IMG/VR virus record: IMGVR_UViG_3300035208_004396
Source: a virus
Taxonomy: Duplodnaviria > Caudoviricetes
Strand: one strand, 5' to 3'
DNA: 64,000 nt
The notes under the pieces were generated by a model. It did no database searches, was not told the DNA's origin, and was given only the letters and a program-made list of their open reading frames with translations. The position numbers were made by a program, and so were the translations under genes. Positions 1,482 through 64,000 of this stretch are shown piece by piece (position 1 is the first letter of the stretch; every line of letters starts with the position of its first letter).

Positions 1482-1619
1482 CAGAATATTATAAACTAAT
1501 AGTAGTTTGGATAATTTGTAATTTAAATGGATTAACAATTTTATCTATATTTTACATTTTCTTTCTTAAAAAATGTTTAACCCTTTACGATATTAATTTA
1601 TTTTACTTATATTATAAGC

Positions 1620-1718
1620 ATGAACAAAATTAAGTATTATTCAATTAGACTAGGCATTATTCTCGCTGGTATTGTAATGGGATATGCTTGCTGCATTCTA
1701 ACCTGGTTTTTATCATGA
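1620..1718 (+). CDS. small membrane peptide (32 aa)
   Basis: TATATT-N6-ATG; hydrophobic C-terminal half. Confidence 0.45.
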   Translation: MNKIKYYSIRLGIILAGIVMGYACCILTWFLS

Positions 1719-1978
1719 TTATCAGTTATGGAACCAAAAACTTAGATCTTGGCAATGTCACTGGTATAACTCGGATCGTAAAAGATACTGTTTATCATAG
1801 TGGATACATTCTGGGTTTATACCGAAACTAAAACATATATGTTTGATTTAATACCTACTAGTATACGTATTTGGATTATTGGGGATTCAGCAGATCATTT
1901 AATCGATCTTAATACTAGTGTTGAACTTATTACAGATCAATTCGATTAGATTTATAAACAGATTAAAAGGAATCTAAA

Positions 1979-2152
1979 ATGAAACTTACTAATAAACAGT
2001 TGAATAGGATAGAAGATATTCACTTCCGTTATGATCTGCATTATAAACTGTGGGACTGGCTTAGCAAACATCCCGACAAAAATAAAGCAGATTACTTTTT
2101 AAAACATAAAACAGCAGATATTTTTTCAGGTCCTTATAGCTGTTATGCTTGA
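1979..2152 (+). CDS. hypothetical protein, possibly truncated
   Basis: AAGGA RBS; HYKLWDWLSKHP...SCYA-stop. Confidence 0.45.
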   Translation: MKLTNKQLNRIEDIHFRYDLHYKLWDWLSKHPDKNKADYFLKHKTADIFSGPYSCYA

Positions 2153-2197: not shown

Positions 2198-2494
2198 ATG
2201 AAATATAAAGATTTTAAGAAAGCTCTTATGCTTGCTGGTATTAAAGATGAGAATGAGATTATTTTTCAAACTTATGATATTAATACTAATGTAAGTAAGA
2301 TTATTCCTCAAGTAGTATTGATCTCCTTCCCTGAACAAGTTGGGGAGATTTTCCATATTATTGGTTTGGGAGATTCTGATGAATTAATGTTGAATTATGA
2401 ACAGGCTGGTACAAAACCAGATTTCATTTTCGATAATGGTATTGAACCCGATTGGACACCGGCATCAAATACTATTAAAAAGGTGATAAAATGA
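2198..2494 (+). CDS. hypothetical protein
   Basis: ORF track; TATATT-N6-ATG. Confidence 0.7.
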   Translation: MKYKDFKKALMLAGIKDENEIIFQTYDINTNVSKIIPQVVLISFPEQVGEIFHIIGLGDSDELMLNYEQAGTKPDFIFDNGIEPDWTPASNTIKKVIK

Positions 2495-5419: not shown

Positions 5420-6142
5420 TCACCAGGTAGTGGTATTCCAATCATTTTTAACTTGCTTTACTCTATTAGCATATAATATTTTACCTGCTAAAATATTGTA
5501 ACCTCTGTTTAATGATAAAGCCACATTATCAGGGACAATATAGTTTATAGCATTAAAACAACCCGGTTTATTATAAGAGGGGATTCTGAAAATATATCCA
5601 TTTAATAACAGTATATTGGTATAGGCTTGATCATCTTGATTATCTGAAAAAAGTTCCGGTGTCATAAACTTTTCCCACCCATTTAGCATTTTTTTAGATA
5701 CTACACCAGCACAACCCGAGCTATATAATGACGTTTTTCCGTTAATTGTCAAGTGATCTATTCCATTTTCAGTAATACCACACATTTTATTATACTTCGA
5801 AAATTCTACTATTCTTTTTTCTAATAAATCCTTCGGCATTTTAAGCATATCATCATCCAAATAAATGATGATATCATCAGGATTTAGAAATTGCAAAATA
5901 GGAAATACTTTTTTCATAGTTTTAGAATTTTCTTTAACCCAGTTTATTTTGAACCAATCATCGATTTTATCTACTAAATCTTTAGGTAAATCGTCATTTT
6001 TACTTGGAAATTCATCACTTGACAATGTTAAATAAAAATTATCTGGCACTAAAGTCTGATTTTTTATTAAATCTACCATTTTTGACACATTTTTGATTCT
6101 TTTACGCCATGATGTCATGCAACAAACAATTTTATCGATCAT
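5420..6142 (-). CDS. GT-A glycosyltransferase, paralog of the N domain of 3930..5417
   Basis: MTSWRKR, KKVFPIL, YLDDD. Confidence 0.75.
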   Translation of the reverse strand: MIDKIVCCMTSWRKRIKNVSKMVDLIKNQTLVPDNFYLTLSSDEFPSKNDDLPKDLVDKIDDWFKINWVKENSKTMKKVFPILQFLNPDDIIIYLDDDMLKMPKDLLEKRIVEFSKYNKMCGITENGIDHLTINGKTSLYSSGCAGVVSKKMLNGWEKFMTPELFSDNQDDQAYTNILLLNGYIFRIPSYNKPGCFNAINYIVPDNVALSLNRGYNILAGKILYANRVKQVKNDWNTTTW

Positions 6143-33116: not shown

Positions 33117-34163
33117 ATGGAAGATGAATTAAAAAAGAAACTTCTAGGAATTGGCTTAAAGGAAGAAGACTTGGCCGAAGTTACTGTCGCGTTTGATACA
33201 GCTGTAGAGTCCATGGTGAATGAGCGCTTAGTTGAAGAGAAGGCGAAGATTGATGCTTCATATAAAACCAAGGCTGATGACTTTTGTGAGAAGAAAATTG
33301 CCCAAGAATTAGAGTTTGAAAAAGCCGATCTTCAGAAAATTTCCGAAGAATGGTTACAGAAGAAAGCTAATACTTTAGCAAAGAAAGCTCAGATGTTGGT
33401 CGATAAAGAAGTCGATCGGATTGAAGAGAATACTTCTCAATATATCGATAAGTATTTTAATGAAGCATTCCAAGAAAAGTTTGGTGCTGAATTAGCTAAT
33501 ATCGAGGAGTCGGTTATTTCTTCAGTCGATCAGTATTTGGATCTCGTAATTGCTGAAAAAGTTGGTCCTCAAATGATTGAGAGTGCCGCTATGAATGAAA
33601 CTTTTGCTCCAATTATTCAGGGTATTCAGAATCTGTTCGAAACACAATATGTACCATTGAATAATTCAGGTACCGCTAAATTGGAAGGTGCTAAAAAAGA
33701 GATCTCAAGTTTAGAGGAATCGCTTAAAGAACAAGTAAAAGCAAATATGAAATTAGCCGTGGAAAATGAAAAGTTCCAAAAGAATGTGTTAATTTCGGAA
33801 AAATGTTCTGAATTATCAGCTGGCAACCGTGTTAAATTGAAGAAATTCTTCGAAAATAAGCCTTTTGCCACAGTAAAGTCTGATATTGAAGAGTATTGTT
33901 TAACGTTGGAGAAAGAAAGTTCTGAAAAAGCTAATCTGATTGCAGAGAAAGCTGAATTAGAACGTAGACTTCAAATGCGTAAACCTACACCGGAACCTCG
34001 TCATGAGCCGGTTAAAACTATGTCAGAAAGAGTAATTTCAACAGATGTTACTAGACACATTCATACTGAGCCAAAACTCGAAGAGAATGTAAGTAACAGA
34101 TTTAGAGCTCAAAAGGAAAGCTTAGACGAAGCTTTACTTAAAAGAGCAGCTTCATTGTTATAA
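33117..34163 (+). CDS. prohead core scaffold (gp22-like)
   Basis: Acidic coiled coil, FDTAVE, VDQYLDLV; directly upstream of the MCP. Confidence 0.85.
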   Translation: MEDELKKKLLGIGLKEEDLAEVTVAFDTAVESMVNERLVEEKAKIDASYKTKADDFCEKKIAQELEFEKADLQKISEEWLQKKANTLAKKAQMLVDKEVDRIEENTSQYIDKYFNEAFQEKFGAELANIEESVISSVDQYLDLVIAEKVGPQMIESAAMNETFAPIIQGIQNLFETQYVPLNNSGTAKLEGAKKEISSLEESLKEQVKANMKLAVENEKFQKNVLISEKCSELSAGNRVKLKKFFENKPFATVKSDIEEYCLTLEKESSEKANLIAEKAELERRLQMRKPTPEPRHEPVKTMSERVISTDVTRHIHTEPKLEENVSNRFRAQKESLDEALLKRAASLL

Positions 34164-34181
34164 AATATAAGGAGTAAAACA

Positions 34182-35468
34182 ATGCTTATACTTAATAAAA
34201 ATCATGCTGGTCAGTCAGATAAGCTAAAGCTTTCCGGCATTACAGATCCGATCATTCGTGAAAATACACGCCAATTGATCGAAAACATTCAAGGTTATCA
34301 AACTAAATCGAAATTGAACGAAGATTTTGGTATTGGTTTGAATCCGCCTACTGGTTTGAATCAAGGTATTCCTACTGGTGGAATTGGCCATGGTGCTTAT
34401 GCTCCAGTAACTTGGGCAGTTGCTCGAAGGGCTTTCCCCGATCTTATCTCTAACGTATTGGTTGGTAACCACGTTATGAAGACACCGGCAGAACAGATTT
34501 TCGCACTTCGTAACATTTATTTAACTAATGATAAGACGAAGATGGTTGAAGCTGCATGGCGTGCCGTTGGTAAGTTCTCTGGTTTTACTGGTTCTCAACC
34601 CGGTCGTGAAGGTCCAGTTGATTCTGGTACTGCCGCTGCTGGTACGGAGAATCCTGAACACTGGAAACTTGGCGGCGATCCTGCTAAGTTCGAAAAGATG
34701 CCAGAACTTGGTATCAACATGATTTCTCAGGTCGTTGTGGCCCAGAAACGTCAGGTTGGTGCTTCTATCAGTACTGATGCTCTTGAGGATTTGAATTCCC
34801 AACATAGTATTGATGGTTTACAACATCTCACTCGTTTGTTACAATATGAGTTAAGTGCGGAAATGGATCGTGAAACTATTTCTCATTGTAAAGCTCATTG
34901 TATTCCTCAGATTATCAATAAGTCCGATACGACTTTAGCTGATAACACGGGATGGGTCGGTAGAAGTTCTATGGAACGTTTCTCTTGGATCAGAACTTTG
35001 ATCATGAGAAAGGCTAACGAAATTGGTACTGCTACTCGTATTAGTGCTGCTAACGTAATGGTGGTTTCACCTGATGTTGCTACAGTATTACAAGCTGGTA
35101 ACAGCCAATATTTCACTGCTTTCAACGGAACGGTTGATGCTTTGAAAACCACGGCAGAAATTGGTACCTTAAATGGTAACATTCGGTGCTTCGTGGATAG
35201 ATATCAGGGTGGTGAACATGCCAATGGCACAGAAGATACCGGAGAAGTTCTTCTAGCTTATAAGGGTAGTGCAAACGATGACGCTGGTGTTATCTTCTGT
35301 CCTTATATCATGGACGTTGTGCAAACTGCTACTGATCCTAACGACTTCTCACCTAGGGTTGCTGTAAAGGCTCGTTATGCTTATGCAGATAACATTCTCG
35401 GTTCAGAAAACTATTATCGGTTATTGAAGTTCAACAAGATCTTCGATGACGCTAACCTTGTGTTCTAA
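34182..35468 (+). CDS. major capsid protein (gp23-like)
   Basis: LIEN, ARRAFP, IFALR, EMDRE, YKG...DAGVIFCPY, DPNDFSPR...RYA. Confidence 0.95.
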   Translation: MLILNKNHAGQSDKLKLSGITDPIIRENTRQLIENIQGYQTKSKLNEDFGIGLNPPTGLNQGIPTGGIGHGAYAPVTWAVARRAFPDLISNVLVGNHVMKTPAEQIFALRNIYLTNDKTKMVEAAWRAVGKFSGFTGSQPGREGPVDSGTAAAGTENPEHWKLGGDPAKFEKMPELGINMISQVVVAQKRQVGASISTDALEDLNSQHSIDGLQHLTRLLQYELSAEMDRETISHCKAHCIPQIINKSDTTLADNTGWVGRSSMERFSWIRTLIMRKANEIGTATRISAANVMVVSPDVATVLQAGNSQYFTAFNGTVDALKTTAEIGTLNGNIRCFVDRYQGGEHANGTEDTGEVLLAYKGSANDDAGVIFCPYIMDVVQTATDPNDFSPRVAVKARYAYADNILGSENYYRLLKFNKIFDDANLVF

Positions 35469-61284: not shown

Positions 61285-62073
61285 TCACTTATTTAATCGC
61301 TGTTTTTCGTCATCTTTTACACCTTTTATGAATGATTCTTTAGATTTAAGCCATTCTTTATTCAATGGAGATTTATATAACGGAATATTGATATTTTTAA
61401 TATTATAATCTAGATACATCGATCTAATTTCATCGATTAAACTATCGCTCATAGATGAAATCTCTAATTTTGCTATTTTCTCGTTGGAATTTTCCGATTT
61501 TACTAAACTTTCTTCATAAAGACTCTTATAATCCATACTGAAGTCTATTTTATCATCGCCATAACGTAAAACACTCTTGAAATCTTCTACATTTAATCCA
61601 TAATATATTGATTTAGGTGAATAATTTGCTAAATAATCTCGCATAATTTTTGAAAATTGTGCTATATCCATCTTATCATGAGAGTTATTTTCCGACCATT
61701 CTTCGAATTCTTTAAAATATCTTTCGTATAAGTATTGTATCTTATTTAACATGGACTTAATCCAACTATCTTTTACAGGAGCTATTTCACTTCCTATACA
61801 TTTCAAACTCGGTATAACTGTCATTTTATCTGAAATAGTGAATGCAAATTCCTTGTCATTAAGTCTTTTAGAAAGATCAGTATTGATATTTTTTGTGAAA
61901 AACCAAATAGGTTTAGTTTTATAACCGAATAATGTTTTCGCACTTAATTTAGCTTCATCATATTTACGTCCGAAACGAGCTTCTCTATCAGCTTCGGCTT
62001 TTTTGAAATATTGTTGATAATTATGAGAATAACCACCATAATTAGTATTATAATATTCTAAGAATCTTTCCAT
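61285..62073 (-). CDS. hypothetical late protein
   Basis: CATATATA-N5-ATG; MERFLE N-terminus. Confidence 0.7.
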   Translation of the reverse strand: MERFLEYYNTNYGGYSHNYQQYFKKAEADREARFGRKYDEAKLSAKTLFGYKTKPIWFFTKNINTDLSKRLNDKEFAFTISDKMTVIPSLKCIGSEIAPVKDSWIKSMLNKIQYLYERYFKEFEEWSENNSHDKMDIAQFSKIMRDYLANYSPKSIYYGLNVEDFKSVLRYGDDKIDFSMDYKSLYEESLVKSENSNEKIAKLEISSMSDSLIDEIRSMYLDYNIKNINIPLYKSPLNKEWLKSKESFIKGVKDDEKQRLNK

Positions 62074-62098
62074 ACTAATATATATGTGAAAATAACTA

Positions 62099-62127
62099 TT
62101 GAGAAAGATTTAATAATTTCTTATATT
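62099..62127 (+). promoter_or_regulatory. sigma70-type promoter TTGAGA-N17-TATATT
   Basis: Exact consensus, followed by non-coding DNA. Confidence 0.75.
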
Positions 62128-62133
62128 ATGATC

Positions 62134-62515
62134 ATTGGAACTGAGATTCCAATCGGCTAATTGACAATTCGGAACATTTTCAATCTTTTTAGAATTAAAC
62201 TGTAGGCTCAGAAACAGCCATCAGCTAAAGAGTGGCAAAGGTTCCTCCTAGTATAACGGGGACGGTGAAAACTTAGCAAAAGCCCGTTTAAGTCATGTTA
62301 ATTAATAGGACATGATGACATATGCTGGAGGATAATCAATCGATTTGTTACGTACATTCAAACTAGTTAAAAAACTGTGAAATAATACCAAGGCTAATGA
62401 GTGCTAAGTCTGGTCTAAGGTGAAATTTCACAGCCAGAAGATCTCCGGGTTTGATATGTATAGTATACATTCGGGTAAGTTAATTGCTCGAGCCTTTGGA
62501 GTAAAATTACATTTT
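62134..62515 (+). ncRNA. unidentified highly structured ncRNA
   Basis: At least 8 nested helices with G-U pairs and a loop-loop pairing; no ORF. Confidence 0.7.
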
Positions 62516-62607
62516 TTCTATTGAGATTCATCTAATTTTTTCTATATTTCAATTTGTTAAAGATTCAAATCTTAACTGTTAATTGAAATTTTGGTTTTAT
62601 TTTTTAT

Positions 62608-62691
62608 GCCCAGGTGGTGGAATTGGTAGACACTAGGGACTTAAAATCCCTTGGTCGTAAGATCGTGAGGGTTCGATTCCCTCTTTGGGCA
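62608..62691 (+). tRNA. tRNA-Leu(TAA)
   Basis: Cloverleaf, AGGGA-CTTAAAA-TCCCT, long variable arm, GTTCGA. Confidence 0.92.
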
Positions 62692-62769
62692 CTATAAGGC
62701 GTGGTTTAGCTGCTACGTCTTAGAAATGGAAAACGTTTGAGCTAACAAACGTTTTAGTTTCCATTAGCT

Positions 62770-62843
62770 ATATTATTCGTATAATTCTGGCAGTACAATC
62801 GCCTATCGGCAGATTGGTATGGGTTCGAATCCCATATAATATA
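62770..62843 (+). tRNA. atypical/degenerate tRNA, nominal anticodon ATC
   Basis: Perfect acceptor, D and T stems; two mismatches in the anticodon stem. Confidence 0.55.
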
Positions 62844-63013
62844 TCTTTTAGTTGAAATAAAATAGAGATTAAAAATCCTTGCCATAAACTTCCTAGATCT
62901 ATAAGGCAAAAGATAAAACGATACGTGAATGAATGTGTAATAAGCATAATCTAGTATATTCACATTATATTGTTTAATCCCCCCGTCAAGTTTTACTGGG
63001 TTCTTGACATTTT

Positions 63014-63088
63014 GGCCGAGTAACCGAATTTGGCATAGGTACTTGTTTCAAACACAAGATTTTGTGGGTTCGATTCCCGCCTTGGCCA
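63014..63088 (+). tRNA. tRNA-Leu(CAA) with short variable loop
   Basis: CTTGT-TTCAAAC-ACAAG; A73. Confidence 0.85.
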
Positions 63089-63092
63089 CTAT

Positions 63093-63164
63093 GCCGTTAT
63101 ATGTCAATGGTTAGACGAAAGGACTTTTAATCCTTGGATCCGAGTTCGAGTCTCGGTAACGGCA
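63093..63164 (+). tRNA. tRNA-Lys(TTT)
   Basis: AAGGA-CTTTTAA-TCCTT; full cloverleaf. Confidence 0.92.
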
Positions 63165-63432
63165 CTAATTTTCAGGAAAAAAGATAAAAAACCTCGACTG
63201 GATGTAAGTAAAGAGGGGTTTGACCTTTTCAGATTTTAGACGTAAAATCGATAACAAAAGGTTCTTTTTATACTTAATATAATTTAAGATCTCGATTAAG
63301 TTGAAATAAAATAGAGATTACCACCTAAATTTTCTTAGAAGTTTAGGAAAGGCTGAGTGGTTGAGCACTGACCGAGTACCACTGAAATAATAAAAAATGC
63401 AGTTCGGTCATCATTTTATAGGATTGATAACT

Positions 63433-63690
63433 ATTATGGATAAAACAATGAATAAAAATGAATTTGATGAATTATTCAAGGTTCCTGCTAATATGGATTC
63501 AGATTCATATGAGGACTGGATAAGGAAAAAGTGCATCGATCTTCGAAACGGTATTGACTTTATGATTGAGAATATTGAATATTTGGAGGGTGATGCTGGC
63601 GAATTTCCGTCCGAAAGAGAATCTGTATACGATAAATGTTATTCTAGATATCAGGAGTTATTCGATAATTCAACCGAAAATGTAGATTGA
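63433..63690 (+). CDS. hypothetical protein
   Basis: Acidic ORF; true start uncertain (AGGA upstream of MDKTM). Confidence 0.55.
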   Translation: MMDKTMNKNEFDELFKVPANMDSDSYEDWIRKKCIDLRNGIDFMIENIEYLEGDAGEFPSERESVYDKCYSRYQELFDNSTENVD

Positions 63691-63902
63691 CTATGAAATA
63701 CAATGGCATAGAACTAGTCGATGTAAGTCAGAAGGAATCTATTACAAATGATGATCCCATAGAAATGATCTGTTGGAATGATGGAGATATTCCAGTCAGG
63801 TGTATAGTTTATGCAATAGTTCCGGGAAGTAGATATCCTGTTATTACTGATTGTAATAGATGCATAGTATTTCAACATTGTGCATATAATAACGTTTTTT
63901 AA
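63687..63902 (+). CDS. hypothetical protein
   Basis: ORF track. Confidence 0.55.
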   Translation: MTMKYNGIELVDVSQKESITNDDPIEMICWNDGDIPVRCIVYAIVPGSRYPVITDCNRCIVFQHCAYNNVF

Positions 63903-63970
63903 AGTTACAGGTAAAAAGAATCACTCCACTATAATATGTCGGTTTCTTGAGAAGGTTCTTCCGACATTTA

Positions 63971-64000
63971 GGCCAGGTAGCCGAATTTGGTATAGGCGTG
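63971..64000 (+). tRNA. 5' part of a Leu-type tRNA cut by the window end
   Basis: GGCCAGG-TA-GCCGAATTTGGTATAGGC matches the D arm of the 63014 tRNA. Confidence 0.7.

Follow-up and report, generated by a model that had tools for sequence, protein, structure and literature searches.

A phage noncoding RNA whose conserved core resembles the GTPase-associated centre of 23S rRNA

INTRODUCTION

What kind of RNA lies between a promoter and a tRNA array in the genome of a T4-like marine phage, and does it stand alone? A preliminary description of the window (the whole 64,000-nt stretch of phage DNA analysed here, IMG/VR record IMGVR_UViG_3300035208_004396) had proposed a large, ornate noncoding RNA at this place. 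That interpretation is partly supported: the RNA is structured, bears a promoter and falls outside Rfam, but it is not an orphan, since the helices described form the insert of a large family, whose rRNA-like core had been overlooked. We are almost certain that positions 62191-62519 (+) hold a noncoding RNA of ~330 nt that is a divergent member of a family mimicking the GTPase-associated centre (GAC) of 23S rRNA; the conserved, defining part of the RNA is a predicted copy of that centre, comprising the end of H42, H43 and H44. The more general idea, that the RNA serves as a trans-acting imitation of the GAC, we consider quite likely. The family is widespread in phages and absent from Rfam 15, and we did not find it described: the full-text literature, in a coverage that leaves out most subscription journals, returned no account of a phage GAC-mimic RNA, its closest content being on ribosomal proteins encoded by phages (PMC6375957) and on other types of phage RNA decoy. 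What the window contributes to the family is a copy that is divergent and AT-rich and whose changes are compensatory, a unit bounded by promoters, and a natural deletion in a close relative.

RESULTS

A promoter-bounded unit ahead of a tRNA array

The window phage is T4-like, encoding a gp23 capsid protein, a T4-type scaffold protein, UvsW and a tail sheath; when IMG/VR relatives were sought by neighbouring proteins, only 53%-identical sheath relatives were found, without synteny. A promoter of its own had been claimed for the RNA, and this was borne out by a motif class, TTGAGA-N16-18-TATATT, that occurs five times in the window (at 814, 27427, 46253 on the minus strand, 62099 and 62521) against an expectation of 0.21, and that is probably the early, host-sigma-70 type promoter of the phage. 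The copy at 62099-62127 (+), here P1, has a 17-nt spacer and is present also in a sister phage (L003); the window RNA would be transcribed from this sigma-70-type promoter, with a predicted start near 62134. There follows a 5' leader of ~55 nt (62134-62190, +) with a 7-bp hairpin (62134-62140 / 62147-62153), conserved in the sister phage although the mimic is not; as a structured element this leader has a stability not above chance (z = +0.67). Just past the mimic is P2 (62521-62548, +), a near twin of P1 (repeat D5) of the same motif class, standing ahead of the tRNA array. The unit is thus ordered P1, leader, mimic, P2, tRNA array, and by its position P2 is the predicted 3' limit of the RNA's own transcription unit and the predicted driver of the tRNA array. 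The U run at the end of the mimic, in the 3' strand of its outer helix, may also help termination.

The placement upstream of a tRNA cluster was likewise confirmed, both Rfam and ARAGORN reporting tRNAs downstream, and tRNA-Leu begins 86 nt past the RNA on the same strand. Within this tRNA region, 62770-62843 (+) was scored as a tRNA by Rfam (38.9 bits) and was not reported by ARAGORN, and may be an aberrant tRNA or a tRNA-like RNA; a further tRNA, starting at about 63970, is cut off by the end of the window. A 25-nt repeat, TTWAGTTGAAATAAAATAGAGATTA, occurs here in two copies 96% identical (62847-62871 and 63296-63320, +), one ~4 nt past the tRNA-like RNA and the other ~130 nt past tRNA-Lys; its role may be that of a promoter or of a processing signal.

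No Rfam 15 family matches the window RNA, whether the whole window was searched at gathering score or positions 62000-64000 at E up to 10, where tRNAs were the only matches. The strong match that would have removed the novelty of the RNA was not seen, and the statement that it is without the hallmarks of tmRNA, RNase P and group I/II introns stands (no Rfam match, and no tmRNA by ARAGORN). It had also been set apart from GOLLD and ROOL, correctly in that neither gave a match at gathering score or at E up to 10; identity with ROOL (RF03087) or GOLLD (RF01998) was rejected, the same search finding a true ROOL at 337 bits in another phage contig (L093). A ribosomal protein leader was rejected too: there was no match to any Rfam leader, and the RNA has its promoter and tRNA genes downstream, with no ribosomal protein gene nearby. 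By blastn, the phage GenBank collection contained no match to the window RNA.

Both ends of the RNA resemble one domain of 23S rRNA

Comparison with E. coli 23S rRNA by blastn aligned window positions 62201-62231 with 1058-1088, at 26 identities of 31 (E = 1.6e-4). The rest of the window RNA matched E. coli 23S rRNA at noise level only, and outside 62201-62231 there was no similarity to 48 other 23S loci either. A 23S rRNA gene or fragment (RF02541) was rejected as an identity for the RNA, because the rRNA likeness is not collinear beyond a 58-nt domain and no LSU match appeared at E up to 10. What we find instead is a GAC-like core in two pieces, 62191-62233 and 62499-62519, as predicted from comparison with rRNA and with the family introduced below, and lying partly outside the helices of the preliminary description.

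The 5' piece opens with one strand of an outer closing helix (62191-62198, +), placed by covariance model (CM) alignment as the equivalent of the end of H42 (23S 1048-1055). The H43 mimic follows (62200-62224, +; 23S 1057-1081), identified by blastn, by an exact 21-nt match to one genuine archaeal 23S variant and by CM alignment, and after it the junction CUAAAGAGU (62225-62233, +; 23S 1082-1090, including A1088), identified by blastn, rRNA comparison and CM alignment. Together, 62200-62233 contain an rRNA-type H43 loop (UYAGAARCA, with A1067) and the UAAAGAGU junction. In the H43 mimic A1067 (62210) is retained, as is the U1060.U1078 mismatch, and A1061, C1066 and A1071 are also present; the last two occur in genuine 23S rRNAs. 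Patterns of this H43 variant retrieved only genuine 23S rRNAs, apparently mostly archaeal, from JGI metagenomes, and in exact and near-exact form retrieved nothing from IMG/VR and nothing from species genomes.

The 3' piece comprises the H44 mimic with the 3' junction (62499-62512, +; 23S 1091-1104), which the CM aligned to family GGCGUAAUAGCACAC with high posterior probability, and the other strand of the outer helix, the U-rich UUUUUUCU (62512-62519, +), also from the CM alignment, in which six of the eight outer-helix pairs of the window copy (62191-62198 / 62512-62519) are standard and two are U.U. Positions 62495-62512 read UUUG-GAGUAAAAUU-ACAU, an H44 hairpin that retains A1095; in it we recognize G1091, A1092, the loop GUAAAA (A1095 being 62503), U1099 and U1100 ahead of the ACAU. 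Between the two pieces lies a variable insert of ~265 nt (62234-62498, +). On this alignment the two ends of the RNA together rebuild, as a predicted structure, the minimal uL11-binding domain of 23S rRNA (E. coli 1051-1108): the ends would meet through the outer helix, with the 265-nt structured insert placed between 1090 and 1091. The mimicry of this minimal uL11/thiostrepton domain is near-exact in sequence and in predicted secondary structure, and we infer that the RNA folds into the GAC tertiary domain off the ribosome and acts in trans.

Pairs that differ from the family consensus in the window copy are all still paired: 1057-1081 as C-G, 1055-1104 as A-U, 1092-1099 as A-U and 1091-1100 as G.U. 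The base of the H43 stem is thereby compensatory (A1057-U1081 to C-G), and in H44 C1092-G1099 has become A-U and G1091-C1100 has become G.U. Compensatory changes in every altered pair point to selection for the fold in the window copy. A1071 accompanies U1100 here, and genuine 23S rRNAs with A1071 nearly all have U1100; a G.U at 1091-1100 together with A1071 fits the known 1071.(1091-1100) base triple. The tertiary docking of the window copy may nonetheless be weaker or altered, because C1072 is retained although its rRNA triple partner 1092-1099 is now A-U, and because U1097A and C1082 are present.

A large phage family with the same split core

IMG/VR was searched with a pattern for the H43 half in which C at 1092 was forbidden so as to leave out true rRNA; it returned 94 phage contigs, many of them 100-370 kb long. 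In the family the H44 hairpin reads GCGUAAYAGC (with A1095), UUUG standing before it and ACAC after it. Most distinct family members end in UUUGGCGUAAUAGCACAC, which corresponds to H44 followed by the 3' strand of the H42 end, and in most the core is split by an insert of 62-333 nt at 1090/1091, the insertion site being the same in the distinct phage members examined (59 with the H44 end). From 5' to 3', the family order is outer helix, 23S 1055-1090, self-closed insert, UUUG, 23S 1091-1104 and outer helix.

Covariation was assessed on an alignment of 32 members (A2), made with MAFFT and not fitted to any structure. In A2, 93.9% of cells are paired, compared with 31-51% when the partners are slid, and 14 pairs have substitutions in both partners. 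Covariation extends to each of the eight pairs in the outer helix and each of the four that close the insert. In the outer helix it is free, the sequence of H42 not being retained. Against this variation, UAAAGAG of the junction is invariant in the 32 members, and the loops that hold A1067 and A1095 are invariant across the family. A covariance model built from the 32 A2 members, with the window left out (R1), matches window 62191-62522 at full length (model positions 1-165 of 165; 52.5 bits, E about 6e-15), which puts the window copy at the bottom among complete members, the others scoring about 50-127 bits. The window sequence is not peculiar to one assembly, being identical in two independent Logan assemblies (L005 and L006).

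R1 also suggested a second copy at window 34109-34281 (16.9 bits), which we rejected because it is coding, reaching from the last part of the scaffold gene into the beginning of the gp23 capsid gene. Two close R1 matches each were seen in L143 (4455-4552 and 4628-4799) and L136 (1792-1953 and 2061-2177), which may represent the mimic in tandem or in split form. With Rfam, 15 family loci yielded only tRNAs and one separate ROOL; under relaxed thresholds the sole relevant match on family loci was of bacterial LSU model positions 1084-1153 to L075 64-131.

The insert carries the previously described helices

All the secondary structure that had been described before falls within or at the edges of the insert, which contains the closing helix CAAAGGTTC (62236-62244) / GAGCCTTTG (62490-62498), the two domains and the 3' hairpin. 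The closing helix is where it had been placed, both multi-helix domains and the 3' hairpin likewise, and every one of them is reproduced by the MFE and the centroid folds. An RNA on the + strand had been proposed, and folding energy agrees: 62200-62520 beats dinucleotide shuffles on the + strand only (z = -3.38, 0 of 100 shuffles as good; z = -1.16 for the - strand), and the insert 62234-62498 alone gives z = -4.57 (0 of 200 as good). Two further details did not survive. An 8-bp loop-loop pairing (62271/62402) overlaps the AGGCT/AGTCT stem, and at least one such 8-mer pair arises in 38% of shuffles; the repetition of GGTGAAA is not supported beyond chance.

In the window the insert is closed by 9 bp in the MFE fold, as compared with 3 bp in the family register of the CM alignment. 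The family-conserved UUUG is the 3' end of the insert here (62495-62498); single-stranded in the family, it is absorbed into the 9-bp closing helix in the window MFE fold. The window insert is without similarity to the insert of any other member: its sole homologues are the identical copies in L005 and L006, and no diverged homologue was found. When the inserts of 81 family members were compared with E. coli 23S rRNA, one marginal match resulted, and for the window insert a reading as a 'miniature rRNA' was rejected, the matches to 23S rRNA around 1230 and 1640 being noise (E = 0.45-1.2). The inserts are hypervariable by these comparisons, the two domains of the preliminary description being, as predicted here, the variable insert of a large family. 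The insert would be a module that stabilises the RNA or has an accessory role. In about a third of the A2 members a motif, CACCCCG-GNRA/UAAC-CGGUAAGG, stands just before the closing helix, and at the matching place the window insert has GGGUAAG only. The inserts may fall into subfamilies.

Carriers, neighbours and a natural deletion

Most family loci are within tRNA arrays, where the RNA often starts 14-25 nt past a tRNA and the next tRNA comes 144-460 nt later. Cultured carriers include Pseudomonas phages pf16 (between tRNA-Asn and tRNA-Pro), Astolliot, Milchi and UNO-G1W1, Aeromonas phage 4_4572, Xanthomonas jumbo phages XacN1 and XaC1, and Paenibacillus phage Pd_22F; in such genomes the element is unannotated or mis-annotated as 'hypothetical protein'. 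The complete genomes of pf16 and XacN1 have exactly one copy each, and neither has a gene for uL11, which was detected in 14 of 14 control genomes. Across 69 distinct loci no conserved protein neighbour of the RNA was found.

Two loci are of interest for their surroundings. The XacN1 mimic (L151, 2496-2732) is not in a tRNA array and comes after a gene annotated as 2'-5' RNA ligase, a neighbourhood that suggests an RNA-repair context. In L093, one tRNA array holds both a GAC mimic (2254-2473, minus strand) and, ~150 nt downstream of it, the ROOL mentioned above (1503-2100, minus strand), so ROOL and the GAC mimic can co-occur as separate genes.

The sister phage L003, whose neighbouring protein is 79% identical to that of the window, retains P1, the leader, the 5' flank up to ...AAUUAAACUG, the 3' end AAAAUU...UUUUUC and P2. 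Some 295 nt between these flanks are missing, and a weak, small, terminator-like hairpin with a U run is left at 5845-5878 (-); R1 detected no copy of the mimic in 12.8 kb of L003. We read this as loss of the element by internal deletion, which indicates that it can be lost and is dispensable at least in some hosts.

DISCUSSION

Proposed function

As a free-standing molecule, the RNA would present the surface at which the 50S subunit makes contact with uL11, RelA and the translational GTPases, and it is probably a decoy or sponge of uL11 or of other GAC ligands. Only the 58-nt domain is copied and the H42-like helix covaries freely, which argues for contacts with uL11 or factors rather than with uL10. 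With no recurrent protein neighbour and no uL11 gene in pf16 or XacN1, the partner should be a universal host component. Our preferred mechanism, which we rate as close to an even prospect, is that the RNA acts as a sponge for host uL11, one of the exchangeable ribosomal proteins. With uL11 soaked up, fewer ribosomes would carry it and uL11-dependent signalling would be blunted, above all RelA activation and (p)ppGpp synthesis during infection. Since most uL11 is ribosome-bound, such a sponge would have to be present in many copies or bind with high affinity. Pseudo-ToxI (PMC3475682) and the RNA anti-CRISPRs (PMC10651486) are precedents for decoy RNAs of phages.

Other functions could be built on the same core. 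The RNA might be a decoy for agents that attack the GAC, either thiopeptides or toxins that modify or cut H43/H44 (ADP-ribosyltransferases of the Tre23 type), so that the ribosomes are spared; we regard this as unlikely, although the invariance of the A1067 and A1095 loops would suit it, and so would the location in tRNA arrays, which in phages have been argued to counter tRNA-targeting defences. Tre23 ADP-ribosylates 23S nucleotides 1095-1098 of H44 and blocks EF-G, making the GAC a proven toxin target (PMC8661411), and RNA decoys are known from phages (PMC3475682, PMC10651486). Such a decoy would, however, have tens of thousands of ribosomes to out-compete, and with carriers spanning phages of Pseudomonas, Aeromonas, Xanthomonas and Paenibacillus as well as marine phages, the toxin would need an equal spread. 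We know of no anti-phage defence that targets the GAC. A trap or platform for factors, with or without uL11, is a still less probable role: the RNA would bind EF-G, IF2, RF3, RelA with deacylated tRNA, or a phage protein, and would retune translation or sequester a factor. Conservation of the entire domain, including the factor-contacting A1067 and A1095 loops and not just the uL11-contacting stem, speaks for it, as does the encoding by phages of the stalk protein bL12 and other translation parts (PMC6375957). The absence of a conserved phage protein adjoining the RNA speaks against it. So does the weak binding of GTPases by isolated GAC RNA without the sarcin-ricin loop.

The remaining readings make less of the likeness to rRNA. 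Were the function in the 265-nt two-domain insert, perhaps as a ribozyme or ligand binder, the GAC-like ends would be a stable scaffold. The insert folds far beyond shuffles, most members found have inserts, and some insert motifs recur between members (e.g. CACCCCGGAAACGGUAAGG), but inserts are hypervariable, that of the window matches no other, and what is conserved family-wide is the rRNA-like core; we find this reading improbable. An action only in cis, as a terminator, insulator or processing signal of the tRNA operon between P1 and P2, would account for the U run of the RNA 3' strand directly before P2 and for the small hairpin and U run that occupy the same place in the sister phage. 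We think it very improbable, because a terminator needs no copy of the GAC with invariant loops, because other phages have the RNA between tRNAs with neither promoters nor terminators, and because the XacN1 copy is away from tRNAs. Least credible of all is that host 23S rRNA was captured and persists as a neutral relic, or that the element is an artefact of assembly. A 32-nt rRNA-like stretch in the window RNA might suggest as much, yet the likeness is limited to 1055-1104 and self-closed by a covarying helix; the covariation contradicts this reading, and compensatory changes, the insert site shared by the 59 members with the H44 end, identical sequence in independent assemblies and one copy per complete genome also stand against it.

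Returning to the sponge and its wider setting, we would tentatively suppose that large phages of many hosts reprogramme the host from off the ribosome, either by stripping uL11 to act against RelA and (p)ppGpp or by absorbing GAC toxins. If so, RNA-based host takeover or counter-defence would gain a new class, of which the window copy would be a co-evolved, AT-rich variant. Phages would then encode a working imitation of an rRNA domain, beyond tRNAs and a few ribosomal proteins, and the means by which large phages manipulate translation or the stringent response would become concretely testable. The likely ligands are easy to assay, and the cultured carriers pf16, 4_4572 and XacN1 make genetics possible.

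Comparison with known systems

The closest model is the GAC itself. Like it, the window RNA has an H43 stem-loop with A1067 and U1060.U1078, the UAAAGAGU junction with A1088, an H44 hairpin with A1095 and the long-range G1087-C1102 pair, and its A1071 goes together with U1100, as in natural rRNA variants. Unlike it, the window RNA is a free-standing phage gene and not a piece of a 2.9-kb rRNA; a covarying helix of its own closes it in place of H42, and it is split between 1090 and 1091 by the 265-nt insert and then UUUG. At the level of single positions, 1101 is A instead of U, and in the window copy 1092-1099 is A-U and the H44 loop is GUAAAA.

ROOL and GOLLD share with the GAC-mimic family a phage-borne state, an association with tRNA clusters and the lack of a known function. 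The architecture of the GAC mimic differs from theirs, and it has an identifiable cellular model, the GAC; if the reading given here is right, this would be an abundant RNA family for which, unlike ROOL and GOLLD, likely ligands are known, namely uL11, thiostrepton, translational GTPases and RelA. Pseudo-ToxI (PMC3475682) and the RNA anti-CRISPRs (PMC10651486) are likewise phage noncoding RNAs that imitate host RNA, an analogy of function only: they imitate antitoxin or CRISPR RNAs and have a demonstrated target, whereas here the model is ribosomal RNA and the target a putative one. Finally, the autoregulatory leaders of ribosomal protein operons (for example the L10 leader, RF00557, or, in the mRNA of the L11 operon, the L1 site) are also off-ribosome RNAs that imitate the rRNA site of a ribosomal protein. 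Those leaders are cis-acting 5' UTRs in cellular genomes and loose mimics, whereas the phage RNA is a stand-alone gene in tRNA arrays, with the site copied almost letter for letter.
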